A stretch of 23,588 nt of DNA from an uncultured delta proteobacterium (GCA_963814585.1 CAWFDF010000017.1:1-23588), one strand, 5' to 3'; shown: positions 2,551-23,588, counted from the first letter of the stretch. Made by a program: numbers and translations. Notes: generated by a model not told the origin, from the sequence alone.

Positions 2551-4950
2551 GTGCTGCGAATGGCACTGGGCATCCAGACCACCGTCGAGAGGCCAGCCTC
2601 CAGCGGGTATCTACGGCGCCTGCTGACCGGGCCGCTCGCCCGCATCTGGCCCCCGGCCCTGGCCGGCGCGCTGGCGGCGCTGGTGCCGGCGGCTTACCTG
2701 GCGGCCGGCCACGCCATCGCCTGGCGCGACTCCACGCTCTTCTTCACGCCGCTGCGGGCCCTCGTCGAGCCGGCGCTGCGGTCGCTCCGGCTGCCGCTCT
2801 GGAACCCGCACGAGGCGCTGGGCCAACCGCTCTTCGCGCAGCTGAACCACGCCGTGCTCCACCCCGTCTCCCTCCTGGGCGCCTGGCTCCTCCCCGGCGC
2901 CGGGCCCGACCTGGCCATCGTGGCCTTCGTCTTCCTGGCCGCTGCCGGTGCGGCCGTGGCCTCCCTCCAGCTCGGGGCCACCGCGCCGGCCGCGGTCCTG
3001 GGCGGCCTGGCCTACGGCCTCTCGGGGTACGTGCTGGGGATGAGCGCCATCCTCGTCTACCTGTGCGCCGGCGCCACCGCGCCCTGGGTGGTGGCGGGCC
3101 TGCTCCAGCTCGGACGAGGCGGCCCGGGCCGGCTCGCCGTGGGCGCCGTCGCCGTGGCCGTCATGCACCTCGCCGGCGACCCGCAGTGGACCGTGGTCGC
3201 CTGCGCGCTCGGGGTGATGCTGGCCTGGCAGCGACACGGGCTCGCCGTCCTGCCCCGGCTCCTGCTCGCCATGGCCCTCGGCACCGGGCTGGCGGCCCTC
3301 CAGCTGGCGCCCACCGCCCTGGTCTTCGGGGAGACGGCCCGGGCCACGGGCCTCTCGGCGTCGGACCAGCGGCAGTGGGCCTTCCCGCCCTGGCGCGTCG
3401 TCGAGCTGGCGTCGCCGGGCTTCTTCGGCGGCGTCCTCGGCCAGCTGGAGTGGCCGGTCTTCCGCTGGCTCGGCGACTTCGACAGCGCCACCGTCATGAT
3501 GCCGTGCCTGCCGAGCGTGTACGTCGGCGCCGTCCCGCTGGTGCTGGCGGCCGCGGCCCTCCGGGCGGACCGGACGGCCAGGCTGCTCGGCCTCCTGGCG
3601 CTGGTCTTCCTCTGGCTGGCCCTGGGACACCACTTCTACGCCCAGTCCGTCGTGGAGCGCATCCCGATCTGGGGCTCGTTCCGGTACGCGGAGAAGCTCA
3701 TCGGGCCCCTGACCCTCTGCCTGGCCCTGGCGGCCGCCCGGGGACTCGACGCGTTGCCGTGGCCGCGCCCCCGGCTGGCCTGGTCCCTCGCCGCCGCGGC
3801 CGCCGCCTTCCTGGCCGGCGCGGCGCTGCTGGCGGTTGATCCGTCGCTGGTGCCGCACGGCGCGGGCGCGACGGCGACGGCGGGCGCGGCCCAGGCGGCG
3901 CGGAACCTCTCCGCCGGCCTGCTCCACCTCGGCCTCGCGACGTCGCTCCTGGCGCTGGTGCTGGGCCGTGGCGCCCGCTGGAGCGAGCCGGCCCGGCGCT
4001 GGTCGCTCACCGGGCTGCTCCTCGTCGCCGCCGTGGGCGCCTCCCCGTTCTCGCTCCACGCCGGCCAGCCAGGCCTGCTCGACCTGGGCGTGATGACGAG
4101 CCTCCCCCGCGAGGCGCCCGCCCCGCGGATCATGACGCCGCTGGAGGAGGGCGGCCACGCGCTCCAGCGCGGACCCCACCCGGTGGATGCGCTGCTGCTG
4201 GCGCAGTCCCGGCTGGGCGAGGTGCCCTTCCCGGCGATGGTGGGGGTCGATCAGGTCGGGGGCTATGCCGCGATGCCCGCCCGGCCCTGGGTGGAGGTCC
4301 GGCAGCTGCTGGCGAGCAGCCTGGGGACGGAGCAGTGGGTGGCGCTGCGGCGCTTCGGCGTGACCCACGCCGTGGTCCAGGATCCGTACACCGACCAGGA
4401 GAAGGTGATCGCCCGCAGCGCGACCCGGCAGGCGCGCTTCCTCTGGCACGATCGGGACCGCCACCTCTCCGTCTGGGCCCTGCCGCACCGGCCCTGGGCC
4501 AGCTTCGCCGCGGAGGTCTGGCCCGCCCGCGACGAGGTCGAGGCGCTGCGGTTGCTGGGCCAGGCCGTCTCGGCGGGCAGCGAGGCCGTGGTGGTCGAGA
4601 GGCCCCCAGCCGACCTGGCCGCGGGCGGCGGCCGGGTCCTGCGGGTGGCGCGCGGCACCGAGGAGGCCGAGGTCGAGGCCGAGTCCGACGGGCCCGGCCT
4701 CCTGGTCGTCAACGAGGCCCTGCTGTCCGGCTGGAGCGCGACCATCGACGGCGCGCCCGCGCCGCTGCTGCGGGCCGACCGGGCCGTCCGCGCCGTGGCC
4801 TGGCCCCCGGGCCGTCACCTGCTCCGCATGCACTACGAGGCTCCGGGGCTCCGCCTCGGCCTGTGGGTCAGCTCGGCCAGCGCGCTGATCCTGCTGGCGC
4901 TGGCCGCCCTCGCCCTGGCGCCTGCCGCCAGGCGGGGCAGCACGGCCTAG
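2551..4950 (+). CDS. YfhO-family polytopic membrane protein (putative GT-C glycosyltransferase)
   Basis: 799 aa with many hydrophobic helices; LPLWNP..LGQP motif near the N-terminus; C-terminal LVVNE...GWSATIDG...RAVAWPPGRH.L..Y followed by a final TM helix, as in YfhO proteins; GGAG before the GTG start. Confidence 0.8.
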   Translation: MLRMALGIQTTVERPASSGYLRRLLTGPLARIWPPALAGALAALVPAAYLAAGHAIAWRDSTLFFTPLRALVEPALRSLRLPLWNPHEALGQPLFAQLNHAVLHPVSLLGAWLLPGAGPDLAIVAFVFLAAAGAAVASLQLGATAPAAVLGGLAYGLSGYVLGMSAILVYLCAGATAPWVVAGLLQLGRGGPGRLAVGAVAVAVMHLAGDPQWTVVACALGVMLAWQRHGLAVLPRLLLAMALGTGLAALQLAPTALVFGETARATGLSASDQRQWAFPPWRVVELASPGFFGGVLGQLEWPVFRWLGDFDSATVMMPCLPSVYVGAVPLVLAAAALRADRTARLLGLLALVFLWLALGHHFYAQSVVERIPIWGSFRYAEKLIGPLTLCLALAAARGLDALPWPRPRLAWSLAAAAAAFLAGAALLAVDPSLVPHGAGATATAGAAQAARNLSAGLLHLGLATSLLALVLGRGARWSEPARRWSLTGLLLVAAVGASPFSLHAGQPGLLDLGVMTSLPREAPAPRIMTPLEEGGHALQRGPHPVDALLLAQSRLGEVPFPAMVGVDQVGGYAAMPARPWVEVRQLLASSLGTEQWVALRRFGVTHAVVQDPYTDQEKVIARSATRQARFLWHDRDRHLSVWALPHRPWASFAAEVWPARDEVEALRLLGQAVSAGSEAVVVERPPADLAAGGGRVLRVARGTEEAEVEAESDGPGLLVVNEALLSGWSATIDGAPAPLLRADRAVRAVAWPPGRHLLRMHYEAPGLRLGLWVSSASALILLALAALALAPAARRGSTA

Positions 4951-5093: not shown

Positions 5094-5351
5094 TCAGCGG
5101 TTGGTCCGGGCGTAGACGCGGTCGCGGAGCTGGTCGCGGGTCTGCAGCGGATCCGTGCCGTTCACGCAGTCGCCGGTCTGCAGCTGGTCCTTGGCCTGCA
5201 GCTTGGCCCGGTCCCGGGCCTGGTCCATGGCCGCGATCCGGTCGCGGATCCGGTCGAAGAGCCGGAGGTGGGTCCAGTCGCCGGCCATGGCCGGCGTGGC
5301 GAGCATGGTGAGGACGGCGGCGAGGGTCATGCGGCGAGCGAGCGTGGTCAT
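5094..5351 (-). CDS. Small secreted D/R/Q-rich hypothetical protein (85 aa)
   Basis: Sec-type signal peptide (MTTLARRMTLAAVLTMLATPAMA) followed by DRIRDR/DQARDR/DQLRDR quasi-repeats; GC-ending codons. Confidence 0.7.
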   Translation of the reverse strand: MTTLARRMTLAAVLTMLATPAMAGDWTHLRLFDRIRDRIAAMDQARDRAKLQAKDQLQTGDCVNGTDPLQTRDQLRDRVYARTNR

Positions 5352-5489: not shown

Positions 5490-5826
5490 CTACGCCGGGC
5501 AGACGTAGAGCTTGCGCAGGTCCTCGTGGACCACCCAGCGCGTCCTGGCCCCGGCCTCGAGGACGCCGACGTCACCCGGTCCCGACCTGCAGGGTCGGGC
5601 CCCCCTCGACTTCGATGGTGGCCCGCCCGCGCAGCACCACGAACACCTCGTCGACCTCCACGTCGGTGGAGGAGCCGGCGGTGTGCTCCCAGACGCCGGC
5701 GGCGAGCCCGGCCACGACGGGCACCTGCACGGATCCGGCGCGCGGGCTCCCCGCCACCACCTGGCGCGCCGGGAGCGGCTCCAGGGGGACCTCGAGCCGC
5801 GTGGCGGCGATCACTCGGCAGGCCAT
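5490..5826 (-). CDS. Cupin_3 (DUF861/EutQ-like) protein, ~111 aa; +1 frameshift near 5582
   Basis: GVWEHTAG...DEVFVVLRGRATIEVEGG, and after removing one base VGPGDVGVLEAGARTRWVVHEDLRKLYVCPA* (TAG at 5492-5490); GGAG RBS overlapping the upstream stop. Confidence 0.85.
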
Positions 5827-5833
5827 GACGCTC

Positions 5834-7541
5834 CTACTCCAGCGTGAACCACTGCACCTCGACCCGGCGGTTCAGGTTGCCGTCGGCGCCGACCGGCTCC
5901 TCCCAGCCGCGCCCCACCGTCTCGATCCGCTTGGGATCGAGCTTGGGGTGGCGCGCCAGCAGCGCCTCGCGCACGCCCATGGCCCGCTGCCGCGACAGCT
6001 CCATGGCCTTGAGGGCCATGCGCCCGCACCAGCTCCTCGCCCCCCTGCTTGCGGAACTCCGCCACCCGGGCGTTGTCCACGTGGCCGCGCAGCACCACGA
6101 TCGAGCCCGGGCTCACCTGCAGGAACTGCTTCACCGCGTCGAGGTACTCCAGGTTCTTCGGCTCCTTCTTGTCGAGCGCGGCGGAGTTGGGCTCGAAGAA
6201 GAAGCGGATGTCCTTCTTGAGGAGCGGGTCGCCCTCCAGCGAGGCCCCCGCCCCGGTCTTGATGGGGGCGATGGCCACCACCTGCCCGGCGAAGAGCCCC
6301 TCCTTGGCCAGCGCCTCCAGGTGCGAGAGGTCGGGGAAGCGGGCCGAGTCGGACGGGTTCTTGATGACGTCGCCGTAGGCCAGCACCGAGGACTGGAAGA
6401 TGCCGCCGAAGGAGCCGGCCGCGTCGATGGTGCCGGCGAAGAAGGCGCGGTTCTCCGGCAGGTTGGCCAGGTGGACCTTGCCGAGCTCGGCGGCGGCCTC
6501 GGCCTCGCTCCACTTGAACGCCTTGGCCACCACCGCCAGGTTGGCCTTCTGGTCGTCGCGCAGCCGCCGGTTGCCCTCCAGCAGGCCGTGCACCAGCCCC
6601 TTCACCAGCTTGGGGTTGGCCTCGGCGAACCCCTTGTTGACGGTGAGGATGTCGGCCACCACCAGCAGGTTCCGGTTGGTGACCAGCGCCTTGGCCTTGC
6701 CGGCGGAGGCCTCGATGACCTCGTCGGTGGCGGGCGACCAGCCCACGCAGCCGTTGAGCCGCCGGCGCCCGCTGGCCAGCTCGGCCTGGTAGGCGGTGCA
6801 GCCGGCGTTGGCGTCCTCGTAGAAGACCAGCCCGACCTCGCCGGGCTCGGGGCGGCCGTCCAGGTCGCGCAGCACGCTCACCTGCACGCCGGCCTCGCGG
6901 GCCAGGTAGCGCAGGAAGAACTCGGCCTCGTTGAACTGCGAGGCGGCCAGCACCTTGCCGGCCAGCTGGTTCACCGTGGCCACGCCGGTGTCCACCACCA
7001 GCATGTCGGCGCCGCGCGACCAGCCGATCTGCGCCGGCACCACCACCTGGAAGCCGCGCCCCTGCACCGCCAGCACGTCGGTGGTGGTGGCCGAGGCGGC
7101 GAACCGGCCGTTGTTGAGCTGGCACCAGGTCTCCCCCTCGCCCACCGTGAGCTTCACCTTGAAGCCGTGGGTGCGGGCGAAGAAGGACTCCGGGTTGGGC
7201 TCGAGCCCGCCGTTGGCCACGATGAGCCCGCCGTAGCCGGCGTACTCCGAGATGTCCACCTCCACCACGCCGTCCTTGACGACGTAGGGCGCGGCCGCGG
7301 CCAGCGGGGGCGGGCCGGTGACCGGCTCGACCGGCGCGGGGACCTTCCCCTCCGGGGCCCTGGCGCCGCCGGCGGAGGCGGGGGCGCCGGGCGCTCCGGC
7401 GGTCGCGCCGGCCGGCGCGGGCGCCGGGGCGCGGCGCAGCAGGAGCCAGGCGCCCAGGCCGATCAGGGAGAGCGCCAGCAGGATGGTGACGATGGCGCCG
7501 GCGGCGGCGCCGCGCGGCGTGCGGAAGGGCGTGAGGGTCAT
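5834..7541 (-). CDS. Membrane-anchored periplasmic binding protein (NMT1/SsuA-like PBP2) fused to a C-terminal OmpA-like peptidoglycan-binding domain, ~568 aa; +1 frameshift near 6024
   Basis: ATG 7541 with GGAG RBS and ATGA overlap; N-terminal TM helix, Pro/Ala linker, PBP-like region (EYAGYGGLIVANGG; WSRGADMLVV); OmpA motifs FEPNSA, GHVD, LSRQRA, GRGWEEP, NRRVEV. The two frames join by removing one base at CCC 6023-6025. Confidence 0.85.
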
Positions 7542-8389
7542 GCCGATTCTCCCGTGGTGGTGCGGCCCCGGCGCGAGCGGCCGAGCAGCGTGCTGGGTGG
7601 GGGGGCGGTCAGGTCGTCGAGGCCGCCGAGCAGCTCCTGCTGGTCGATGAGCCAGCGGCTCGCCTCGTCGAGCGAGGCGGAGAGCGAGTCCACCGAGCCG
7701 GTCACGCCGGCCTCGCCGGTGGAGAGCAGCACCTGCTCGCGCACCAGCGCCACCTGCTGGCGGATCCGCTCCAGCTCGGCCTGCACCCGCTCGCGCCGCC
7801 GGGCCGCCTCGAGGTGGCCGTCGCGGCGCGCCTGGATCACCCCGGCCTGCTGCTCGAGCGTGCGCTTCAGCTCGTCGGGGAGGTCGGGCGAGAGCAGCCG
7901 CCTGGCCAGCGCCTGCGCCTGGGTCTCCAGGCTGGCGGCCTCGGCCGCGCCGCTCGCCATGACCCGCTCCAGCGCCTGGCGCGCCGCCAGCAGCTTCAGG
8001 TGCATCCAGGCCAGCCGGGCCAGGCCGTCGGCGTGCGTCGAGGCCCGCTCCGGGCCCAGCGTGGCGAGCACCTCGTCGCAGCGCGCCTCGAGCGCGTCCT
8101 GCGCCTCCTGGTCCACCCGGGCCAGGCGGGACCAGAGCGCCTGGTGGCGCGGATCGCGCTGGCCGGCCGGACCGCCGCCGCCCCCCGCCGCGTCCACGGC
8201 GGCCTGGAAGCGGGGGTTGCGCGAGAGGGCCAGCAGGTAGGCCACCTCGAGCCCGGCGCCGATGAGCCAGAAGCCGGGGTTGAGGAGGGCGCCCAGCATG
8301 GCGAAGGCGGCCACGCCGAACAGGTTGGGCGGCACCGGCATGCCGGACGGGCGGGCCCAGAAGGCGGCCCAGACGTGGCGGGCGCTCAT
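7538..8389 (-). CDS. 2TM plus coiled-coil membrane protein (283 aa), probably a separate gene from the upstream ATPase
   Basis: MSARHVWAAFW... start; two hydrophobic segments then a long helical coiled-coil; its ATG overlaps a TGA (ATGA, 8389-8386) that closes the +1 frame of the upstream gene. Confidence 0.75.
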   Translation of the reverse strand: MSARHVWAAFWARPSGMPVPPNLFGVAAFAMLGALLNPGFWLIGAGLEVAYLLALSRNPRFQAAVDAAGGGGGPAGQRDPRHQALWSRLARVDQEAQDALEARCDEVLATLGPERASTHADGLARLAWMHLKLLAARQALERVMASGAAEAASLETQAQALARRLLSPDLPDELKRTLEQQAGVIQARRDGHLEAARRRERVQAELERIRQQVALVREQVLLSTGEAGVTGSVDSLSASLDEASRWLIDQQELLGGLDDLTAPPPSTLLGRSRRGRTTTGESA

Positions 8390-10063
8390 GTCCCGCTCGC
8401 GGCGCCGCGGTCGGCCGCTCGGACCGGCCAGGTGGCGGAAGGCGGGGGCCACGAAGGCCAGGTCGGTGGCCTCGCGCACCGCCAGCCGCATCTGGAACTC
8501 CATCACGTCGGGCGGCACCGGCCCCTGGTAGCCGTCCAGGCAGCGGCGCACCGCCTCGAGGGGCGCCAGGCTGGCCGTCCGCACCAGCCGGTAGGCCTTC
8601 ACCGAGAGCGCCTCGGCCGCGCCCGGCGTGAGCAGCAGCGGCGGCGCGAGCGGGAGCAGGTCGGCCGGGGACACCGCCAGGTCGAGCCGCGCCAGCAGCG
8701 CCGAGAGCAGCCCCGCGCTCTCCTCGGCGGTGGCGGTCGGGAGGATGGGCACCTTGACGTCGACGCGGCCGGGCCGCTTCAGGTCCACCTCGATGAGGTC
8801 CGGGCGCGACGAGGCCAGCACCCACATGACCCGCCCGCGGTTGGAGGAGTCGCTCATCTCCTGCGCCACCATCGAGTAGAGGCGCCCCCCCAGGCCGCTG
8901 TCGCCGCTGCCCGACTCGCGCCGCCCCAGCGCCTGGTCGGCCTCGTCCACGAAGACCATGCAGCGCCCCAGCGCCCGCACCAGCCGGAAGATCTTCTCCA
9001 GGTTCCCCTCGGAGGAGCCGACCCAGCGGTCGCGGAAGTTCTTGAGCTTCACCACCGGCACGCCGGCCTCCCCGGCCAGGCACTCGACCAGGAAGGTCTT
9101 GCCGGTGCCCACCGGCCCGCAGACCAGGTAGCCCATGGGCAGGGCGCGCAGGTCGGCGGCGCGCCAGAGCGCCACGTCCTGCCGGAGCCAGGCCTTGAGC
9201 GCCTCCTGCCCGTGGTAGTCGGCGAAGGAGCGGCGCGGCTCGATGAACTCCACCAGGCCGGCCGAGTCGCGCTCGACCAGCTCCTTCTTGACCCGCGCCT
9301 GGTCGGCGGGGCGCAGGGGGCGCTGCTCGTGGGCCCGGGTCTTCACCAGGCTCTCCAGCGCCGAGATCGAGACCCCCACGAAGGCGGCGGCCGAGGCGCC
9401 CAGCTCCCCGCTCCCGGCGTCGAAGGCGGCCGGGTGCTGCTGCTGGAGCATGGTGAGGGCCTGGGTCAGCGGCGCCGCGTCGGGCAGCGGCACGCGCACC
9501 CGGTTCACCCGCGGGTTTCCGGAGATGAGCGGGTGCAGGTCGGTGAGGCCGTCGGCCAGCAGGAAGGAGGCGAACGCCACCTCGGAGAAGGGGGCCTCGC
9601 CGGCCCAGTCGCGCACCAGCGAGACCAGGCTGCCCTGCTCGTGGCCGCCGTCGTTGCCGGCCGGCAGGATGCGATCGGCGCCGCGCAGGATGCAGGCCAC
9701 CGAGCGCTTCTCCGGCCGCCCCAGGGCGCGCAGGTTGGCGAGGTAGCGCACCCAGCGCCCCACCAGCTCCACCGCCTCGAGCGGATCGCGCGGCAGCGGG
9801 CCGGCCTTCTCGCCCCCGCGCCAGGCCTCCACCGCCTCGGCGCCGCGCGCCACCCGGAGCCCGTTGCCCAGGTCGTAGACGAAGACCACGTCGAAGCCGG
9901 CCAGCAGCTCCTCCTCCAGCCAGCGGTGGAGCGTGACCAGCCGTCCCTCCACCGGCAGGCGGTCGGCCACGTTGCCGTGCAGGATGAACTGGCCGTGGGC
10001 GCCGCTCTCGTAGGCCAGCACGAGGTCGGCGGCCCAGGCGGGCGCGCTCGGCGGGAGGGGCAT
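8386..10063 (-). CDS. Classical-clade AAA+ ATPase with a degenerate N-terminal AAA-like domain
   Basis: Walker A GPVGTGKT, pore loop RWVGSSE, Walker B MVFVDEAD, second region of homology SSRPDLIEVDLKRPGRVD; N-half has eroded motifs (FILHGNVAD; CILRGADRILP). 3' end inferred from a probable +1 indel near 8420. Confidence 0.9.
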
Positions 10064-10128
10064 GCTAGGTCCCGCCTCGCCGCGGTCTCGGCGCTCTGGT
10101 CACGGTCGCCGGCCTGGGGTGGGGCATC

Positions 10129-10890
10129 TCAGCCCTCCTTGCCGCCCTCGGTCTCGCTGGCCTTGGCCGCGCCCATGGCCCGCTCGGCCGGGGCCGTCGC
10201 CACCTGGGGCTCCAGCGTGATGCCCTCCTTGGCGGCGAAGTCGGCCAGCGCCTGGTCGGCCAGCGCCTCCAGCTCCGCCTCCTTGACGTTCACCTCGCTC
10301 ATGTCGAGCGCGTCCCTGGCCACGCGGGCCCGCCCGGCCGCCTTGGTCCGCTCCTCCTCCACCATCTCGTGGAGCCGGTTGATGGTGTCGCCCGAGCCGC
10401 CGATCTCGCTGACCATGCCGGAGGCCATCTCGTGCATCTCCGCCATGGCCTGCTTCATGCGCATGTCGGTGATGGCGCCCTTCAGGCCCTCGATCTTGGC
10501 GCGGGCCGAGGCCACCGCCACGTCACGGGCCTTGACCAGGTTCTTGTAGGTCTCCTCGGCCTGGGCGAGCTGGCGCCGGTTCTCCGCCAGCTCGGCCTCC
10601 ACCGCCTGCAGCCGCACCGCGTACTGGCCGGCGGCGTTGCGGTTGCCGGCGCGCAGGTGGGCGGTGGTCTTGGCCTTCAGGTCGCGCTGCTCGGCCTCCT
10701 GCTTGCGCACCTGGCCCATGATCCGCTCGCACAGGCCGGCGTGGGTGGCCAGCCCCTGGTTGAAGGAGGCCACCTGCTTGCGCAGGTTCTCCGCCTCGAG
10801 CTGGAGCAGCGCCTCGGGGTTGCGCTTCTCCAGGTCGGTGACGAACAGGTTCGCAAACGCCCTCAGCAGGTTCCCCAGCCGCTGCCACAT
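10129..10890 (-). CDS. pspA: PspA/IM30 (Vipp1, ESCRT-III superfamily) protein
   Basis: 253 aa; amphipathic N-terminus (MWQRLGNLLRAFANLFV) followed by E.RNPEALL and long coiled-coils; strong GAGGAGG RBS. Confidence 0.88.
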   Translation of the reverse strand: MWQRLGNLLRAFANLFVTDLEKRNPEALLQLEAENLRKQVASFNQGLATHAGLCERIMGQVRKQEAEQRDLKAKTTAHLRAGNRNAAGQYAVRLQAVEAELAENRRQLAQAEETYKNLVKARDVAVASARAKIEGLKGAITDMRMKQAMAEMHEMASGMVSEIGGSGDTINRLHEMVEEERTKAAGRARVARDALDMSEVNVKEAELEALADQALADFAAKEGITLEPQVATAPAERAMGAAKASETEGGKEG

Positions 10891-11174: not shown

Positions 11175-12545
11175 ATGGCATCGACTCCCATGAACGACTC
11201 CCCCCCCAGTCCGCTCCGCGTGCTCGTCATCGACGACGAGCCCAACATCCGGGACACCCTCGCGCTCTGCATCCAGGGGACCGGCGCCCGCGCCGACAAG
11301 GTCGGATCGAGCGCGGCGGCGCTGGAGGCGCTGCGGCTCGCGCCGTACGACCTGGCCTTCTGCGACCTCCGGCTGGGGTCGGAGAGCGGGCTCGACCTCA
11401 TCCCGCGGCTGCTCGCCGAGCGCCCGGGCCTGGAGGTGGTCGTCATCACCGCCTTCGCCACCTTCGACACGGCCGTGGAGGCCATCCGCCGCGGCGCGCG
11501 CGACTACCTGCCGAAGCCCTTCACGCCGGCCCAGATCCGCCACCACGTCGAGGCCGCGCGCCAGCGGCGCGCCACCGCCTCCCGGCTCGACGACCTGGAG
11601 GCGCGCCTCGCCGACGCGGCCCCCGACGTCCGGCTCGACTCGGCCTCCCCCCGGGTCCGCGCGGCCGTCGAGACGCTCATGAAGGCCGCGCCCCATGACG
11701 TCTCCGTCCTGCTGCGCGGGGAGAGCGGGACCGGCAAGGGCGTCATGGCCCGCGCCCTCCATGCGGCCAGCCCGCGCCGGGAGCGCCCCTTCGTGGTCGT
11801 GAACTGCCCCACGCTCTCGGAGGAGCTGCTGGCGAGCGAGCTCTTCGGGCATGCGCGAGGCTCCTTCACCGGCGCCGTCCGCGACCAGCCCGGGCGCATC
11901 GAGGCCGCCGAGGGCGGCACGCTCTTCCTCGACGAGATCGGGGAGATCTCCCCGTCCCTCCAGTCCAAGCTCCTCCGGTTCCTCCAGGAGCGGCGCTTCG
12001 AGCGGGTCGGCGAGAACCGGACCCGCGTCGCCGACGTGCGCGTCGTCGCCGCGACCAGCCGGGACCTGGAGGCCGCGGTGAAGGAGGGCCGGTTCCGGGA
12101 GGACCTGCTCTACCGGCTCAACGTCGTGGAGGTGACCGTCCCGCCGCTCCGCGATCGCACCGAGGACGTCCTTCCGCTCGCGCGGGGCTTCGTCGCCTTC
12201 TTCGCCTCCCAGGTCCGGCGCTCGCCACCGGAGATCTCGCCGGCCACGGAGCGAATGCTCCAGGCGTGGCCCTGGCCCGGCAACGTCCGCGAGCTGCGCA
12301 ACGCCATGGAGCGCGCCGTGATCCTGACGCCCGGGCAGGTGCTCGAGCCGGAGAGCTTCCCGGAGCGGATGGCGGGGCACGTCGGGCGCGTGCCGACGCT
12401 GGGGGGCGACTTCACCGTGGAGGAGGTGGAGCGGGAGCACATCCTCCGCGTGCTGGCCCGCACCTCCACGCAGGACGAGGCCGCGCGCCTCCTCGGGCTC
12501 GACACCTCGACCCTGTGGCGGAAGCGCAAGAAGGAGGGACGCTGA
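11175..12545 (+). CDS. Sigma54-dependent NtrC-family response regulator, AlgB-like (REC-AAA-HTH)
   Basis: REC domain (VIDDE, FCDLRLG, YLPKPF); GESGTGK; ELFGHARGSFTGA; LFLDEIGE; WPGNVRELRN; Fis-type HTH ending LGLDTSTLWRKRK. Start at 11175 or 11190. Confidence 0.93.
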   Translation: MASTPMNDSPPSPLRVLVIDDEPNIRDTLALCIQGTGARADKVGSSAAALEALRLAPYDLAFCDLRLGSESGLDLIPRLLAERPGLEVVVITAFATFDTAVEAIRRGARDYLPKPFTPAQIRHHVEAARQRRATASRLDDLEARLADAAPDVRLDSASPRVRAAVETLMKAAPHDVSVLLRGESGTGKGVMARALHAASPRRERPFVVVNCPTLSEELLASELFGHARGSFTGAVRDQPGRIEAAEGGTLFLDEIGEISPSLQSKLLRFLQERRFERVGENRTRVADVRVVAATSRDLEAAVKEGRFREDLLYRLNVVEVTVPPLRDRTEDVLPLARGFVAFFASQVRRSPPEISPATERMLQAWPWPGNVRELRNAMERAVILTPGQVLEPESFPERMAGHVGRVPTLGGDFTVEEVEREHILRVLARTSTQDEAARLLGLDTSTLWRKRKKEGR

Positions 12546-12567
12546 GCAGCGGACCGACGAGGCCGCT

Positions 12568-12602
12568 TGCCGCAGCGAGAGGATCGGCTCTCGCAGCAGG
12601 CA
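12568..12602. terminator. Hairpin between convergent regulator and kinase genes
   Basis: GCGAGAG-gatcgg-CTCTCGC core (12575-12594) with an imperfect extension; no U-tract. Confidence 0.3.
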
Positions 12603-12675
12603 TCTCGCCTGGGGCGCGGCACTGGCAGCCTGCGCCACAGCAGGGCTCGGGCCAGTCGAGTGGCACCATGCGCCC

Positions 12676-14502
12676 TCACGCGCCGCTGCGCGGGCTGGCC
12701 GGGAGCGTGAACCAGAAGGTGCTGCCCTGGCCGGCCTCGCTCGTCGCCCCCATCTCCCCGCCGTGCGCTCGCACCACCTCGCGGGAGATGTAGAGCCCGA
12801 GCCCGACTCCGCCGCGCTTCGCCCCGGGGACCTGGAAGAACCGCTCGAAGATCCGCTCCTGGTACTGGGGCGGGATTCCCTCGCCCGAGTCCTGGACCTC
12901 GAAGCGGGCCCCCTCGTTCGTCCGGCGCACGCGGACGTCCACCCGTCCGCCCGGCGGGGTGTGGCGCACCGCATTCCCGAGCAGGTTGTCGAGGACGACG
13001 CCGATCCGCTCCGGGTCGGCCTCGAGCGAGAGGGCCTGGCCAGGTTCCTCCAGGGTGAGCTCCACCCCTCCCGCCCGCGCCGCGGCGTCCGTCTCCCTGA
13101 CGGCCTGCCGGGCCAGCGCGACCGGGTCCACGGCGCGGGCGTGGAGCTCGATGCGGCCCGCCTGGATCCGCGACAGGTCGAGGATGTCGTCGACGATGCC
13201 CTGGAGCCGCTCGCAGTCCTGGCGCGCCGCGGCCATGAGGTCGGCCTGCTGGGGCGTGAGCGGCCCGGCGGCCTCCTCGGCACACATGTGGATGGCCATC
13301 CGGAGCGACGTGAGGGGCGTGCGGAACTCGTGGGCCACGGTGGCGACGAGGTCGTTCTTCAGCTCGTCGAACCGCACCAGCCGGGTGACGTCCTGCAGGA
13401 CCACCGTGACGCCGGTGACCGCTCCCTCCTCGGAGTACAGCGCGGTGGCCCTCGGCAGGAGCCGGTGTGGGCCGTCCTGGAGATCCACCCGGATGGCCTC
13501 GTCGAAGCCGCGAGGGACGACCGCGCCCTTCCCGGAGAGGACGAGCGCCCGGATCGCCTCGACGCGCTCCCGCAGCCGCGGGTCGAGCGCGTGGATCGTC
13601 GCGCCGGCGCCCTCTCCCGTCCCGATCCGGAGCAGGGTCTCCGCGGCCCGGTTCAGGTTGAGGATTCCCACGCCGGCGTCCAGGACCAGGACCGGGTCCG
13701 GCAGGCTGTCGATGGCGGCCTGGGAGGCCTGCTGGGCCTGGAGGAGGTCGCCCAGCGAGCTCTTCCGGAACGCCTCCAGCCGGTCGGCCATGGTGTTGAA
13801 CTCGGTGGACAGCGCCGCGATCTCGTCCCTCCCGTGGGGCCTCGCCCGGGACTCCAGGTCCCCTTCGCCGAAGCGGCGCACCGCGAGGGAGAGGGCCGAC
13901 AGCGGCCTGACGATCCGCGAGGTCAGCGAGAACGAGGCGACCAGCCCGAGGACCAGCGCGCAGAGGGTCGCCACCAGCATGAACTGGAGCAGGCGCTGGG
14001 CGGTCCGGCGCGCCTGGTTGCTCTTGCGGACCATCGCGTCCTGGTTGAGCGACAGCACCTCGTCGATGGCGGACCGGACCGCGATGGAGTCCCGCTGGAG
14101 GGGTCCGAGATAGGCGGGGAGCTTGTCGGTCGCGCCCTCCTGCTCGCGCTCCGCCGTCAGGTAGGCCGTCCAGGCCGCGCGCAGGCGCTCGGTCGCCTGC
14201 ATCTCGCCGGGCTCCGTCAGGTTGCTCTCCTGGACCCGGAGCTCCGCCTCGAACCGGTCCCGCAGCGCCTGCGCCCGCTCCGCCCCGGGCCGCGACAGCG
14301 CCCGGAGCAGCGCCTCGCGGTCGAGCCCGTCGAGCGCGTCCCCCATGCGCTGGGCGGCGAGCACGCTGCGGTAGTTGTCCTGGAGGATGGTCTCCGAGCT
14401 GTCCCCCAGGAAGGAGACCGTGCGCAGGGACGCCGCTCCGACGACGAGCAGGGCCGCGGCCAGCGGGACCTGCGCGAGCAGCAGCCGGCGCCGGAGCGTC
14501 AT
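12676..14502 (-). CDS. Sensor histidine kinase, KinB-like (TM-periplasmic helical sensor-TM-HAMP-PAS-HisKA-HATPase), 608 aa
   Basis: Start MTLRRRLL overlapping the kdpD stop (ATGA); HAMP (GRDEIAALSTEFNTM); H-box VAHEFRTPLTS; N-box NLLGNAVRHT; G boxes DSGEGI and GVGLGL. Confidence 0.92.
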   Translation of the reverse strand: MTLRRRLLLAQVPLAAALLVVGAASLRTVSFLGDSSETILQDNYRSVLAAQRMGDALDGLDREALLRALSRPGAERAQALRDRFEAELRVQESNLTEPGEMQATERLRAAWTAYLTAEREQEGATDKLPAYLGPLQRDSIAVRSAIDEVLSLNQDAMVRKSNQARRTAQRLLQFMLVATLCALVLGLVASFSLTSRIVRPLSALSLAVRRFGEGDLESRARPHGRDEIAALSTEFNTMADRLEAFRKSSLGDLLQAQQASQAAIDSLPDPVLVLDAGVGILNLNRAAETLLRIGTGEGAGATIHALDPRLRERVEAIRALVLSGKGAVVPRGFDEAIRVDLQDGPHRLLPRATALYSEEGAVTGVTVVLQDVTRLVRFDELKNDLVATVAHEFRTPLTSLRMAIHMCAEEAAGPLTPQQADLMAAARQDCERLQGIVDDILDLSRIQAGRIELHARAVDPVALARQAVRETDAAARAGGVELTLEEPGQALSLEADPERIGVVLDNLLGNAVRHTPPGGRVDVRVRRTNEGARFEVQDSGEGIPPQYQERIFERFFQVPGAKRGGVGLGLYISREVVRAHGGEMGATSEAGQGSTFWFTLPASPRSGA

Positions 14503-15647
14503 GCGCGCCTCTTCTCCTCGTCGAAGGAGACGACGTGCACGTCGAGTCCGTCCGCGGCGTCGACCACCCGGTCGAGCACCGAGCGCCGCAGGTGGCGCCG
14601 CCACCAGGGCTCGCTCCCGCGGCCGAGGATGATGTCACCCACCCGGTGCGACCGTGCGAAGTCGATGAGCGCGGCCGCCGGATCCTCGGACTGGAGGCGC
14701 ACCACCTCTCCTCCCATCTCCTTGGCCCGGGCGATGTTGGTGTGCAGGTGGCGCTGCACCTCCGAGTCGATGCGCTCGGGCGACTCCCGGTGGGTCTCCA
14801 CGTGGACCGCGTACCAGTCGGTGTTGAGCCGCCCGGCCATCCTCGAGGCCCGGCGGAGGAGGGTCGCCGCGTGCGTGGGGTTCGAGGAGAGGCACACCAT
14901 GACGCGGCCCGGGGCCGGAGCTCCCGGAGCCGCGGAGGGCTGCCGGATGGCCGCGCGGTCGAGGCTCTGGGCCACCTCGCGGAGCGACAGCTCGCGGAGG
15001 GTGGAGAGGTTGGCGTCGCGGAAGAAGTGCTCGAGGGCCCAGGGGATGCGGTCGGCTGGGTAGATCTTCCCGCCCTTGAGCCGCTCGAGGAGGTCCTCCA
15101 CGGCCAGGTCGAGGTTCACCACCTGGTCGGCCTGCTCCAGGAAGGAGTCGGGGATCGTCTCCCGGACCTGCACGGCCGTGTTGCGCTGGATGAGATCGTT
15201 CAGGCTCTCCAGGTGCTGGATGTTGAGCGCCCCGATCACGTTGACGCCCGCGTCGAGCAGCTCCAGGACGTCCTGGTAGCGCTTGCCGTGGCGCGAGCCG
15301 GGGGCGTTGGTGTGCGGGATCTCGTCGACGACGGCGACGGTGGGCTTGCGAGCCAGGACCGCGTCGAGATCCATCTCCTCGACCGCGACGCCCCGGTACT
15401 CCACCCTTCGCCGGGGAACCACCTCCAGGTCGCCGATCAGCGCCGCGGTCTCGGCCCGGCCGTGCGTCTCCACCAGCGCGCCGACCACGTCCACGCCCCG
15501 CTTCCGCAGGGCGTGGGCCTCCTCCAGCATGCGCCAGGTCTTGCCCACCCCCGCCGCGAACCCGACGTAGAGCTTGAGCTTCCCGCGGCGGGCCCGCTCC
15601 ACGAGCTCGAGGAAGTCCTCCGGCCGCTGGCGGACGGGCGCCGTCAT
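14499..15647 (-). CDS. kdpD: Stand-alone KdpD N-terminal sensor (KdpD domain plus Usp domain; no TM or kinase)
   Basis: GKLKLYVGFAAGVGKT, VETHGRAET, VDEIPHTN..GSRH.KRYQDV, NIQHLESLND, then a Usp-like C-terminus; only 382 aa. Confidence 0.92.
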   Translation of the reverse strand: MTAPVRQRPEDFLELVERARRGKLKLYVGFAAGVGKTWRMLEEAHALRKRGVDVVGALVETHGRAETAALIGDLEVVPRRRVEYRGVAVEEMDLDAVLARKPTVAVVDEIPHTNAPGSRHGKRYQDVLELLDAGVNVIGALNIQHLESLNDLIQRNTAVQVRETIPDSFLEQADQVVNLDLAVEDLLERLKGGKIYPADRIPWALEHFFRDANLSTLRELSLREVAQSLDRAAIRQPSAAPGAPAPGRVMVCLSSNPTHAATLLRRASRMAGRLNTDWYAVHVETHRESPERIDSEVQRHLHTNIARAKEMGGEVVRLQSEDPAAALIDFARSHRVGDIILGRGSEPWWRRHLRRSVLDRVVDAADGLDVHVVSFDEEKRRA

Positions 15648-15656
15648 CTCGTCGTT

Positions 15657-16259
15657 CTACCCCTTCGGGCTGGCCGCCGGGCGCCCGAACTGCCGGTCGA
15701 GGGCCAGGTTGAGGAGCAGGACGTTCACCCGGGGCTCGCCGAGCAGCCCAAGGTCGCGCCCCTCGACTGCATCCTCCACGGCCGCCCTGATGCGCGCCAC
15801 GCTCACGCCCCGGGCCGCGGCGACCCGGGACACCTGCCAGAGCGCGCCGGCGGGGGACAGGTGCGGATCGAGCCCGCTCCCGGACGTCGTCACCAGCTCC
15901 GACGGGACCAGCCGGGGGGCCGCCGGGTTCTCGGCCCGGAGCCGGACCACCTCGGCCGCGGCGCGGTCCCGGAGCCTCGCCGAGGTCGGACCCAGGTTCG
16001 AGCCGCCCGAGGCCAAGGGGTCGAAGCCCCTCTCGCCCGCGGCGGACGGCCGCGGCTGGAAGTAGGCCGGCGACGAGAAGCCCTGGGCCAGCAGCTCCGA
16101 GCCCACCGGCTGGCCGGAGCCGTCGAGGACGATGCTCCCCCCGGCCCGGCGGGGAAAGGCGAGCTGGGCCAGGCCGGTCACGGCCAGCGGGTAGAGCAGG
16201 CCGGTGAGGACGAGGGTGACGACGGTGACGCGCAGCGAGGTCGAGATCTGGTCGAGCAT
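15657..16259 (-). CDS. kdpC: Potassium-transporting ATPase subunit C
   Basis: GLLYPLAVTG, YFQPRPSA, SGGSNLGP, VTTSGSGLDPHLS, GEPRVNVLLLNLALD. Confidence 0.97.
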   Translation of the reverse strand: MLDQISTSLRVTVVTLVLTGLLYPLAVTGLAQLAFPRRAGGSIVLDGSGQPVGSELLAQGFSSPAYFQPRPSAAGERGFDPLASGGSNLGPTSARLRDRAAAEVVRLRAENPAAPRLVPSELVTTSGSGLDPHLSPAGALWQVSRVAAARGVSVARIRAAVEDAVEGRDLGLLGEPRVNVLLLNLALDRQFGRPAASPKG

Positions 16260-16268
16260 GGATTTCCC

Positions 16269-18314
<2,046 letters not shown>

Positions 18315-18316
18315 GG

Positions 18317-20039
18317 CTAGAAGACCCTTCCGCGCAGGGCGGCGAAGTGCTCGAGCACCGGCCCGAGGGACAGCGCCGGGAAGAAGGTCAGCGCCCCGAC
18401 GATGACGATCACCGTGACGAGGAGGAGGACGAAGGTGGGGCCGCCGGTGGGGAAGGTCCCGGGACCGGCGGGGACCGACTTCTTGGCGACCATGGCGCCG
18501 GCGATGGCGAGCGCCGGGACGATCATGAAGAACCGCCCCACCAGCATGTCCACGCCCAGGGAGAGGTTCCAGAAGGTCGTGTTCGCGTTCAGGCCGGCGA
18601 AGGCCGAGCCGTTGTTGGCGGCGCCGCTGGTGAAGGCGTAGAGCAGCTCGGAGAGCCCGTGAGGCCCGGCGTTGTTCAGCGACGAGGTCCCCTGCGGCAC
18701 GACCGCCGCCCAGCCCGCCAGGACCAGCACCGCGACCGGGAAGACCAGGACGTAGAGCACGGCCAGCTTCATCTCGCGCCCCTCCACCTTCTTCCCCAGG
18801 TACTCGGGCGTGCGCCCCACCATCAGGCCGGCGAGGAACACCGTCAGGATGGCCATGACCAGCATCCCGTAGAGGCCGGCGCCGACCCCGCCGAAGACGA
18901 CCTCGCCGAGCTGCATGTTCACCATCGGGACCAGTCCGCCGAGGGGCGTGAAGCTGTCGTGCATGGAGTTCACCGCCCCGCAGGAGGCGTCGGTGGTCAC
19001 GGTGGCGAAGAGCGCGGAGCTCGCCACGCCGAAGCGCATCTCCTTGCCCTCCAGGTTGCCGGCGGACTGGTCGAGCTCCAGGCCGGCGAGGGCCGGGTTG
19101 CCGCCCGCCTCGGCGCCGTAGGCCACGGTCGCCCCGACCAGGAAGAGCGCCGCCATGGCGGCGAAGAGCGCCCACCCCTGCCTCCCGTCCCGCGCCATCC
19201 GTCCGTAGGTGAAGGTGAGCCCGGCCGGGATGAGGAAGATGAGGAGCATCTGCGACCAGGTTCACCAGCGGCGTGGGGTTCTCGAACGGATGGGCGCTGT
19301 TGGCGTTGAAGAAGCCGCCGCCGTTCGTCCCCAGCATCTTGATGGCCTCCTGCGAGGCCACCGGGCCGAGCGTGACGACCTGCCTCGCCCCCTCGACGGT
19401 CTGGAGCTCGACGTTCGGCGAGAGCGTCTGCACCACCCCCTGGGAGACCAGGAAGACGGCGACCAGGAGCGAGAGGGGCAGGAGCACGTAGAGGGTGGCC
19501 CGGACGAGATCGACCCAGAAGTTCCCGAGCGTCCTCGGGCCACCCGGGCCCCCGCGGCGGGTCAGCCCCCGCGCCAGGGCCAGCGCCACGCCGATGCCGG
19601 CGGCCGCGGACGTGAAGTTGTGCCAGGCGAGGCCGGCCATCTGGGCCAGGTAGCCCATCGTCGACTCGCCCGCATAGGCCTGCCAGTTCGTGTTGGTGGT
19701 GAAGCTCACCGCGGTGTTCCAGGCCAGCGCCGGGGCGACCTCCCCGAGGCCGTTGGGGTTGAGCGGCAGCAGCGCCTGGAGGCGGAGGATGGCGTAGGTG
19801 ACGAGCAGGCCCATCGCGCTGAAGACGAGCAGCGAGACCGCGTACGCCTTCCAGTCCTGCTCCCGGTCCGGGTCCACCCCGCAGGCCCGGAAGACGAGCC
19901 GCTCCACCGGACCGAGCAGGCGCGGGAGCGGTCGCGCCCGGCTCTCGAAGACGCGGTAGAGCCAGAGCCCGACCGGCTTCGTGAGCAGCAGGACGAGGAG
20001 GGAGAAGAGCCCGATCTGGAGCCAGCCGTTGACCGTCAT
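18317..20039 (-). CDS. kdpA: Potassium-transporting ATPase subunit A, ~573 aa; +1 frameshift near 19253
   Basis: [38 protein letters not shown] filter motifs spread over two frames; removing one base at 19253/19254 gives ...[18 protein letters not shown]... Confidence 0.96.
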
Positions 20040-20047
20040 GGGGTCCC

Positions 20048-20137
20048 CTAGAAGCGCTCGGGGCGGAGGAGCGCGTAGACGAGGTAGGCGGCGAGCAGGA
20101 CGGCGACGCCGATGCCGAGGACGTGGTCGAGGGACAT
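20048..20137 (-). CDS. kdpF: Potassium-transporting ATPase subunit F (29 aa)
   Basis: [29 protein letters not shown] with the YL.YAL..PE.F signature; GGAGG RBS; directly upstream of kdpA. Confidence 0.93.
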
Positions 20138-20145
20138 GGGGCCTC

Positions 20146-20229
20146 CTAGGACCGGTCGAGCGCTCGGACGAAGAGGACGGCGAGGAGGAAGAAGGCGAGG
20201 GTGGCAGCGGCGAGGGCGAGATCGGCCAT
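20146..20229 (-). CDS. Small single-TM peptide upstream of kdpF (27 aa)
   Basis: [34 protein letters not shown]; its TAG merges with the kdpF RBS. Confidence 0.7.
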
Positions 20230-20237
20230 GGCGAGCC

Positions 20238-20560
20238 TCACTTGGGGGCGGGGGGTGTGGCTTCGCGCGATCTCCTGGCAGCGGGCGTCGCACTCCGGGA
20301 ACTTGAGGACGAACTGCACCTGCGCGAGGCAGCGCTCTCGAGCGCGTCGTTCCGGCGCCGCAGAGGCGCTGGAGCTCGCCGAAGGCCTGCTCGTAGACCG
20401 CTCGCCGCTGCGCCGGATCCAGCCCTCGATGGCGCGATGCTCGGCGTCGAGCTCCAGCTGAACGCGACCGCCAGGCTCAGGGCGATGAGCAGGGCCAGGG
20501 CCCAGCCGGCCCGGTCGCGGTACCGGCGAGGCTGCTCCCTTGGAGGTCGGGTCGAGGCAT
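20238..20560 (-). pseudogene. Cryptic ~105-aa membrane protein with four Cys, interrupted by 5-6 indels (pseudogene or sequencing errors)
   Basis: Protein-like segments chain across all three frames: EQPRRYRDRAGWALALLIALSLAVAFSWSST / EHRAIEG / LDPAQRRAVYEQAFGELQRLCGAG / NDALE / RCLAQVQFVLKFPECDARCQEIARSHTPRP. Confidence 0.6.
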
Positions 20561-20674: not shown

Positions 20675-20823
20675 CGCTGGCGAGGCCACCCACGGGCCGG
20701 CGACCGAGGTGGCCTGGTGGTCGGGCGGCAGGCCGGCTCGACCGGGCCAGGGCAGGACGCCACGTGCTATGGCTGGTGGCACCGGTCCGCGCGGGTGCTC
20801 CGGGCCGGAGACGAGGTGTGGCC

Positions 20824-23478: not shown

Positions 23479-23588
23479 GGTTCTCGCTCCCGTCGGTGTC
23501 GTGGTGTTCCCGCAGACCAGCACGGAGGCCATCGGCCTTCAATCCCCGTTCAGGGTACCTGCCTCCTTGCCCCGGCCGACCCGTCCCG

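Follow-up and report, generated by a model that had tools for sequence, protein, structure and literature searches.

We analysed a stretch of 23,588 nucleotides from an uncultured delta proteobacterium (GCA_963814585.1, CAWFDF010000017.1:1-23588; hereafter the window) and focused on an operon encoding a PspA/IM30-family protein and a tandem AAA ATPase. The genome was 4.3 Mb in size and 91.7% complete. A scan of open reading frames (ORFs) and Pfam searches recovered five co-oriented genes on the minus strand at 5490-10890, as the original prediction had described. The first gene (10129..10890) encodes a PspA/IM30-family protein of 253 amino acids (aa), which belongs to an AAA-linked subfamily (ESCRT-III superfamily; PF04012, E 2.4e-9). 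It is followed by an AAA ATPase of about 550 aa (10063-8386; PF00004 at aa 313-438) and by a 283-aa membrane protein with two transmembrane (TM) helices and a three-helix coiled coil (2TM; 7538..8389), which was described from its AlphaFold2 (AF2) model and has no Pfam family. The fourth gene encodes a membrane-anchored fusion of an SsuA/TauA-like solute-binding domain with an OmpA-like, peptidoglycan-binding domain (PBP-OmpA; 5834..7541; TIGR01728, with PF00691 in relatives), and the fifth a EutQ-like cupin (5490..5826; PF05899, E 1.7e-6) with a frameshift near 5575. No pspB, pspC, pspF or lia gene was present among the window ORFs scanned, in agreement with the earlier description. No cupin homologue was found in 92 related loci (L014-L105), and tblastn over those and L210-L229 also gave none. 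The cupin was therefore rejected as a fifth component; it is a co-oriented passenger outside the conserved system. Because it had no counterpart in any related locus, the predicted five-gene operon was reduced to a conserved unit of four genes, PspA, tandem AAA, 2TM and PBP-OmpA.

The gene boundaries were affected by assembly errors. In the window sequence as assembled, AAA and 2TM form a single 841-aa ORF. The ATPase stop was located inside an ATGA overlap in four of four same-genus relatives, and a contig from run X2 (1 mismatch in 269 nt) carried 14 additional bases at 8398-8420, which restored the AAA/2TM frame. Once an indel at about 8398-8420 was allowed for, the stop codon TGA of the ATPase lay at 8388-8386. 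The apparent AAA-2TM fusion was therefore discarded as "Rosetta stone" evidence. Of the two ATGA overlaps that had been claimed, that between 2TM and PBP-OmpA is in the sequence itself, and that between AAA and 2TM appears only after this correction. Similarly, a one-base insertion near 6021 truncates the OmpA domain and was missing from all four relatives and from contigs of three of three DNA runs. Thus, the split OmpA domain and the apparent fusion were both the result of assembly indels. Further indels were seen in the window: a multiheme cytochrome c is split (91-2446), the cupin is interrupted at 5575, and kdpA, read by eye, is apparently in two frames near 19250. Since the contig contains several indels, fusions and pseudogenes called from it should be distrusted. 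A promoter and terminator scan found nothing. Two metatranscriptome runs contained less than 0.1 of the sequence words, and the contigs of one of them (X18) were only scattered and mostly divergent.

PspA was the sole PF04012 match in the genome, with a score above the family cut-off. The family profile built from alignment A4 (n=62) matched Vipp1/PspA structures from residue 1 with a best E of 5e-12, and the PspA_IM30 domain was found together with its N-terminal amphipathic helix. Past helix 5, a variable Pro/Ala linker was followed by a short motif on which the A4 sequences converged. Its positions were conserved as R/K in 58/62, M/L/I in 62/62 and G in 55/62 sequences. In the window, the candidate tail motif reads R-A-M-G (aa 237-240; 10171..10182, minus strand). 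A strict pattern was defined as [RK][TSAENQ][MLIV] followed by G or by the end of the protein, within the last 30 residues. It was defined after A4 and the phylum sequences and was fixed before the deep-clade sets. The strict motif was present in 49/62 sequences of A4, compared with a mean of 1.2 in shuffled sequences. Other PspA subfamilies gave 3/31, located in or at helix 5, and had no such tail. In the phylum set, 33/35 sequences matched (one tail from G364), and the two misses were the PspA of an ATPase-less genome (G026) and a long-branch system (L025). The motif was also present in 17/17 PspAs adjoining deep-clade ATPases in metagenomes and in 22/24 deep-clade genome PspAs, four of these genes having been seen before. 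In deep-clade PspAs the motif is the extreme C-terminus and ends in a hydrophobic residue, whereas in other clades it is internal and is followed by G and a further tail. MIT-interacting motifs (MIMs) on ESCRT-III sit at the matching position, according to the available part of PMC10936438. These results suggested that the tail motif may be a MIM-like handle for recruitment of the ATPase. The 99%-complete genome G026 retained PspA, 2TM and ABC genes (L222, G026:C2:661000-680000); the family ATPase was not found in it, and its PspA tail reads R-S-L-E, which does not match the strict motif.

The ATPase consists of two AAA modules. The active classical module with the C-terminal helical part (8386..9298; PF00004, E 1.4e-22) contains Walker A (9095-9118), the pore loop RWVGSSE (aa 346-352; 9008-9028), Walker B (8942-8959) and arginine fingers (within 8765-8815), all on the minus strand. 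Among 172 family members, K322 of Walker A was kept in 171 and D373/E374 of Walker B in 172; an aromatic residue (W/Y/F) occupied pore-loop position 347 in 170, and R430 and R433 were present in 171 and 172, respectively. The family therefore has the features of a classical-clade unfoldase, namely Walker A and B, an aromatic-hydrophobic-Gly pore loop and a second region of homology with two arginines, and the pore loop reported earlier was confirmed as part of an intact motor. However, the aromatic pore loop is common to all classical AAA ATPases. The loop is therefore no pointer to Vps4, as which it had been taken.

The N-terminal module (aa 1-255; 9299..10063, minus strand; identified by HHalign) is degenerate. 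Residues 1-260 gave no Pfam match at E 1. The module aligned with the family's own C-terminal module (HHalign probability 93.6%, E 2e-7), its profile matched CDC48 AAA domains (E 5e-11), and Walker A is replaced by LHGNVxD. Since it aligned with the active module and had lost Walker A, the N-terminal half is, judged from its sequence, a dead AAA ring. In four members (P0287, P0302, P0303 and P0315; about 820-856 aa), the dead module appeared to be duplicated, as read from the sequences. Pfam detected an intein in P0337, and another was suspected by eye within Walker A of P0286.

The relation of the ATPase to Vps4 was examined by profiles and trees. NCBIfam scores were all far under the cut-offs: CDC48 gave 64 bits (TIGR01243, cut-off 803), FtsH 60 bits and CdvC 35 bits (NF041006, cut-off 650). 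Pfam found no MIT or Vps4_C match in the ATPase, and MIT was not among the 25/34 families listed for 62 family members. The top PDB sequence matches were p97/Cdc48, which were inflated by two-domain scoring. Two trees were built, a quick one of 66 AAA cores and a careful one of a 23-row subset, the latter without a mixture model. The family formed one clade in both (100/99 in the careful tree). In the best tree, it was placed beside ATPases that we take, from motif and architecture, to be Ycf46-like, and apart from the CDC48, FtsH and Vps4-like rows (98/97). The tree thus gave the family a clade of its own, but its union with the Vps4-like bacterial lineage was not rejected by an approximately unbiased (AU) test (p 0.078). 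The only Vps4-like reference in the tree was this unverified bacterial lineage (L125), with no authentic archaeal or eukaryotic Vps4. By architecture the ATPase is no Vps4, and by tree it likely lies outside Vps4. The proposed likeness to Vps4 therefore held as analogy at most, because the MIT domain is absent and the N-terminal AAA module is dead.

The L125 lineage is a separate observation. A 367-aa AAA ATPase in genome G112 (L125:1453-3452) matched positions 18-366 of the CdvC model with 200 bits, under the cut-off, and a 299-aa coiled-coil protein without Pfam or PDB match lies directly 3' of it. One source names the lineage Kiritimatiellia, and the 120 best listed homologues were all at least 74% identical. 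From sequence, the two proteins could form another type of bacterial pair that resembles Vps4/ESCRT-III.

Gene neighbourhoods were surveyed to follow the four genes across bacteria. At least 580 ATPase relatives were present in GTDB contigs, and the neighbourhoods were taken from the best 80, where PspA was found in 61, 2TM in 48 and PBP-OmpA in 26. When only the 55 of these loci with at least 3 kb on each side of the ATPase were counted, PspA was present in 48, 2TM in 40 and PBP-OmpA in 23; all four genes occurred together in 23, and none of the three partners in 7. 2TM was never found without PspA, and PBP-OmpA never without 2TM. In the best 80, the loci with PspA came from at least five named phyla, and their genes were arranged in several orders: PspA-AAA-2TM-PBP; PspA-2TM-AAA; PspA-AAA alone; SBP-vWA, SBP, PspA, 2TM, AAA, where SBP denotes a solute-binding protein; and PBP, permease, ABC, 2TM, PspA, AAA. 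The genes thus co-occur as the original prediction required. However, they do not form a single obligatory four-part machine, as had been proposed, since PBP-OmpA was beside the ATPase in fewer than half of the well-flanked loci. The core is PspA and the ATPase, and 2TM and PBP-OmpA are optional accessories. 2TM was found in 12/33 genomes tested where it was not adjacent and was not found in 21/33.

The same trend was observed at the genome level. Among 41 relatives, this PspA accompanied the ATPase in all 13 genomes that have the ATPase, and both were missing from 27 of the remaining 28. We then counted 201 genomes of the phylum, which were at least 92% complete except for the window's own and included the unpublished G364. 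PspA was assigned by two subfamily profiles (91 and 25 genomes, one shared, giving 115), and the ATPase was present in 120. At the cut-offs, 114 genomes had both, 80 had neither, one had PspA only and six had the ATPase only. Two of the six have a same-cluster PspA just at the cut-off, and another one has a weak PspA-like match about 2.4 kb upstream. Where PspA was missing from the ATPase locus (20 genomes), 15 carried it elsewhere in the genome. Genomes with deep-clade ATPases also usually carried PspA elsewhere (24/30 at E 1e-40 or better). These counts bore out the proposed partnership of PspA and the ATPase. The pairwise identities of AAA and PspA were correlated (r 0.91); since related genomes have a common history, the correlation was not counted as evidence.

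The pair was present in only 5/13 same-genus genomes and had a patchy distribution in the family to which the window belongs, where two unrelated versions occur. The PspA and AAA proteins of the window share 69% and 71% identity with a gammaproteobacterial pair, compared with 27% and 35% with the pair of an order-mate. This patchiness and the closer similarity to the gammaproteobacterial pair point, on the sequences compared, to joint horizontal transfer of PspA and the ATPase.

Several lineages showed their own arrangement. In family f6, both genes were present in 77/77 genomes, and the layout matched the Archangium row of Ravi et al. 2024, as far as that source was available; for this reason f6 is probably Myxococcaceae. 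Loci L018-L022, L024 and L223 belong to relatives of the same order; in them, a Ser/Thr kinase-like gene (by eye) directly precedes the ATPase, and about 10-13 kb separate the ATPase from pspA within the cluster. The kinase gene suggests regulation by phosphorylation. In Thermoanaerobaculia, three genes lie 3' of the PspA-2TM-AAA operons (L054, L057, L058, L064, L067, L068, L074, L078 and L088): a conserved one of 210 aa, whose V4R/MsvR-like match is weak, and two small unknown ones. A Steroidobacteraceae subclade of the ATPase (L038, L039, L040, L052 and L055) has changes at the otherwise conserved Y18, F57, E448 and P515. Distant full-length homologues of the ATPase are encoded on large Brevibacillus/Paenibacillus plasmids (L124:5968-7599). 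Cultured hosts of the cluster are Arenimonas composti, Pseudoxanthomonas mexicana and Pseudomonas tumuqii, and probably myxobacteria as well.

Complex prediction was performed with aa 1-546 of the ATPase and full-length PspA, each with a 62-row alignment, together with three controls. The ATPase-PspA complex gave a score of 0.43, and the best control gave 0.00, which is weak support. The score mark was reached by 116/157 solved pairs and 2/215 mismatched pairs, but with a score of 0.60 or less it was reached by just 18/157 solved pairs and by both mismatches. The runs agreed in at least 92% of contacts with a partner pLDDT (predicted local distance difference test) of at least 64, and no interface is given. 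The model thus favoured the pairing that had been proposed for modelling, weakly and without defining how the proteins meet.

2TM was modelled with an alignment to a pLDDT of 86; the single-sequence model was poor (pLDDT 51). After a short N-terminal helix, helices 21-35 and 39-56 were read as TM, and long helices 113-165, 172-222 and 226-254 formed a three-helix bundle. A homologue assigned to Anaeromyxobacter sp. was 80% identical, and for this reason the source organism is presumably Anaeromyxobacter-like. Foldseek gave no match at E 0.001, ESCRT-III chains ranking 38 and 50 with E above 2, and VIA-align placed no ESCRT-III chain in the top 50. The fold searches returned generic helical bundles only (best Z 9.7, root-mean-square deviation 4.7, 145 aligned), and the profile gave no match to PDB sequences. 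These searches lent no support to an ESCRT-III fold of 2TM, but they do not rule against it. The nearest named Atlas cluster was Rv2743c (score 0.88, 185 shared features, the family on 40% of members), which is a language-model lead only. 2TM was rejected as PspM (Rv2743c) because PF25587 had no match even at E 10. 2TM homologues occupy the position that Ravi et al. 2024 give for Archangium (L223), and by position 2TM is probably their "SIG+TM+Snf7" protein, as judged from the available part of that paper. We regard 2TM as a candidate membrane anchor for PspA.

PBP-OmpA has an N-terminal TM anchor at aa 9-38. It matched TIGR01728 with E 1.6e-5, and its relatives matched PF00691 with E 1e-7 to 1e-15. 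Its profile matched OmpA-like domains (E 9e-25) and TauA (E 9e-11), and the OmpA-like domain keeps the G-H-x-D and LS-x-x-R positions. Full sets of PBP-OmpA, permease and ABC genes were found in the cluster at seven loci (L083, L093, L094, L098, L104, L218 and L219). This linkage suggests that PBP-OmpA derives from an ABC importer. The operon type of the window has no permease or ABC gene, and the best permease match in the genome was 29-35% identical and on another contig. The persistence of PBP-OmpA in this operon type fits a tether or a sensor and demonstrates neither. In nine loci of Acidobacteria and Planctomycetes (L051, L059, L066, L069, L070, L071, L072, L081 and L083), SBP-vWA and SBP genes precede pspA in place of PBP-OmpA. 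They presumably resemble the solute-binding and vWA genes of TelA-XpaC tellurite-resistance neighbourhoods. The periplasmic sensor role assigned earlier to PBP-OmpA was an unsupported guess, given that elsewhere the protein is replaced by SBP and SBP-vWA genes or accompanied by an ABC permease and ATPase.

The gene cluster and its analogy to ESCRT-III/Vps4 are already in print. Ravi et al. (2024, mSystems, PMC11237479) described operons of PspA, "inactive-Classical-AAA+Classical-AAA", "SIG+TM+Snf7" and "SIG+PBPB+OmpA", with OGG56892.1, AEY64321.1 and AKJ06548.1 as examples, and proposed ATP-dependent remodelling comparable to Snf7/VPS4. The parts of that paper available call disassembly unknown for PspAs without an ATPase. 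The operon of the window shares a pspA gene next to that of a two-AAA protein whose N-terminal copy is inactive, a membrane-anchored PBPB+OmpA and the same four protein types. It differs in the order PspA-AAA-2TM-PBP/OmpA without the ABC permease and ATPase, which are optional in their operons, and the "Snf7" label of the 2TM protein could not be confirmed. No tail motif, genome-level co-occurrence test or structure model was found in the available parts of their paper, and no mention of the motif was found in the portions of the literature searched. In the portions available, PMC9239133 gave no passage on the PspA/tandem-AAA operon. The original prediction had supposed that the neighbourhood was noted but uncharacterised, which proved correct in this literature. 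What is new is the tail motif and the near-complete co-occurrence of PspA and the ATPase.

Known systems provided further comparison. As in ESCRT-III/Vps4 and CdvB/CdvC, the gene of an ESCRT-III-superfamily polymer adjoins that of a classical AAA motor whose pore loop is aromatic, and the polymer subunit has a short conserved motif on its C-terminal tail. In contrast to ESCRT-III/Vps4, the ATPase has no MIT, carries two AAA modules of which one is dead, and belongs to a separate clade, and the PspA motif is not a MIM. The accessible part of PMC10936438 confines vps4+ESCRT-III systems to archaea and eukaryotes and takes the MIT domain as diagnostic for Vps4. Cdc48/p97/VAT share the tandem AAA layout, but the ATPase of the window lacks the double-psi-barrel N-domain, its first ring is catalytically dead, and it forms its own clade. 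Ycf46-like ATPases lie on the same side of the tree. E. coli PspFABC also joins PspA to an AAA+ partner; however, PspF acts as an activator for sigma-54 and belongs to a different AAA+ clade, and no -24/-12 (sigma-54) pattern was found upstream of pspA in any locus scanned. The mycobacterial ClgR-PspA-PspM system resembles the operon in pairing PspA with a small membrane anchor, from which 2TM differs in its lack of a PF25587 match.

Based on the above results, we propose that the operon is a membrane-maintenance module in which PspA, a bacterial ESCRT-III, would have a dedicated motor. Proteins of the PspA family form polymers on the cytoplasmic face of the inner membrane. The tandem AAA protein would form a double ring, with hexamer formation and threading assumed from the classical AAA clade. 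The dead N-terminal ring would serve as a docking platform, and the active ring, whose catalytic residues are intact, would thread polypeptide by its aromatic pore loop. The ATPase would recognise PspA by [RK]-x-[MLIV] on the flexible tail past helix 5 and extract PspA subunits, hence remodelling or recycling the polymer. This would be the same job as that of Vps4 via MIT-MIM contacts, reached convergently. 2TM may be an optional membrane anchor or nucleator, and PBP-OmpA an optional wall-tethered partner, probably from the linked ABC importer. On this evidence, the operon is fairly probably a convergent PspA-polymer remodeller that is ESCRT-III/Vps4-like in function and is not a Vps4 system. 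PspA and the ATPase are almost certainly functional partners. Direct binding is quite likely on the predicted complex, since the complex score adds to the genomic prior, and that PspA is the substrate threaded by the ATPase is, on balance, probable. A fuller scheme remains tentative, with somewhat less than even prospects: a distinct tandem-AAA clade would grip its own PspA subfamily by [RK]-x-[MLIV], as a counterpart of the MIM, and disassemble the polymer, while 2TM nucleates it on the membrane and the wall-bound PBP-OmpA positions it. It is unlikely that the four parts form an obligatory trans-envelope machine that includes a periplasmic sensor.

Several results weigh against this proposal. 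The tail motif is only 3-4 residues long and was defined after A4 and the phylum set had been seen; it is missing from the ATPase-linked PspA of L025 and from two of the 24 deep-clade PspAs, and R-S-L is retained in the PspA of the ATPase-less genome. In five Steroidobacteraceae metagenome-assembled genomes with the ATPase, neither profile matched a PspA, and no pspA was found among the annotated neighbours of the plasmid homologue in the L124 region. In the deep clade, PspA adjoined the ATPase in 17/80 metagenome loci (7/31 with at least 1.5 kb on each side). One family accounts for 77 of the 114 double positives, and kin are not independent. Sensor 1 of the ATPase is S in 111, N in 33, A in 14 and C in 13 of 172 sequences, compared with the usual N. 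The complex prediction is unable to distinguish a substrate from a regulator, and it could stem from similarity to PspA-AAA+ contacts that are already known. In the PspA system that is known best, the AAA+ protein PspF is inhibited by PspA and does not have it as a substrate, according to the partial sources used, and no experiments on the PspA/tandem-AAA operon were found in the portions of the literature searched.

The role of PspA in that system leads to the first alternative, in which PspA is a regulator or adaptor: soluble PspA would hold the ATPase, as it holds PspF, or recruit it to the membrane, and the motor, like Cdc48, would extract other clients, for example 2TM or membrane proteins that have been damaged. 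The binding of PspA to PspF is a precedent, the layout is tandem AAA with its best single-family score for CDC48 (64 bits, compared with 35 for CdvC), and the co-occurrence and the weak complex score fit equally well. However, the conserved motif lies at or near the free C-terminus past a flexible linker, a position at which a threading motor would be expected to take hold. The region of PspA bound by PspF is the hairpin (PspA1-144) in the source as available, and 2TM is no constant client, since it was not found in 21/33 of the tested genomes in which it is not adjacent. We consider this alternative rather unlikely.

Less probable still is a transport-linked machine, in which PBP-OmpA with an ABC permease and ATPase would import a solute, and PspA, 2TM and AAA would assemble or maintain the transporter or the surrounding membrane. 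It is close to a suggestion in the available part of Ravi et al. 2024. The seven loci with full transport sets agree with it, as do the SsuA/TauA-like binding domain and the nine loci with SBP and SBP-vWA in the same place. However, 32/55 well-flanked loci have no PBP-OmpA, the operon type of the window has no permease or ABC gene, and PspA and the ATPase stay together without any transport genes.

Alternatively, a housekeeping protease (FtsH, ClpXP, Lon or a tail-specific protease) may use the tail motif as a degron, and the link between the ATPase and PspA would reflect a shared stress role only. Known C-terminal degrons end in a hydrophobic residue, as do the deep-clade tails, where the motif is the extreme C-terminus. 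However, the internal position in other clades does not fit, and the motif tracks this PspA subfamily (3/31 in other PspAs) although housekeeping proteases are ubiquitous. This explanation is very improbable. It is scarcely credible that the ATPase is a true Vps4/CdvC orthologue, which would make the bacterial system homologous to ESCRT-III/Vps4: a grouping with the only Vps4-like lineage in the tree was not rejected by the AU test, but MIT and Vps4_C are not matched, the N-terminal half is a dead AAA module, the CdvC score is far below its cut-off, the best tree groups the family with Ycf46-like ATPases, and Ravi et al. 2024 too, in the available part, treat the protein as "a distinct" ATPase.

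Other genes of the window were also noted. A kdp-type potassium cluster occupies 11190-20300, with KdpD+Usp and a HAMP-PAS histidine kinase; kdpA/B/C/F were recognised by eye. A sigma-54 regulator with receiver, AAA and helix-turn-helix domains (11190-12545) is transcribed away from pspA and occupies the place of pspF in canonical systems. It was rejected as a stand-in for PspF because it contains a receiver domain, is a neighbour of the kdp kinase genes and is not adjacent to pspA in four same-genus loci, and because the loci showed no -24/-12 pattern upstream of any pspA. The window also encodes a YfhO-like membrane protein (2551-4950), a small protein without a Pfam match that has a signal peptide and LQ-x-RDR repeats (5094-5351), a GNAT acetyltransferase fused to a domain that by eye looks like ArsC or a low-molecular-weight phosphatase (20788-21741) and a PBP_like_2 solute-binding protein (22612-23532). 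An anti-phage system was rejected, since PADLOC gave generic IetA matches for the ATPase only and none for the other three proteins. No full-length homologue was present among 22 weak viral matches.

The question on which the operon bears is how bacterial ESCRT-III polymers are disassembled. The available part of a 2024 structure paper suggests chaperones or PspF for disassembly (PMC11746142), and that of PMC13051332 names Hsp70 chaperones for Vipp1. The operon offers a two-protein system for testing this question, and the tail motif supplies a specific mutant. The stand-alone ATPases of Steroidobacteraceae provide a natural control for the PspA-binding surface. If the proposal is true, many bacteria, including a whole myxobacterial family, would have a convergent equivalent of ESCRT-III/Vps4. 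It would overturn the statement, in the part available of a 2025 review (PMC7619361), that a Vps4-like ATPase regulating PspA appears to be absent in bacteria.

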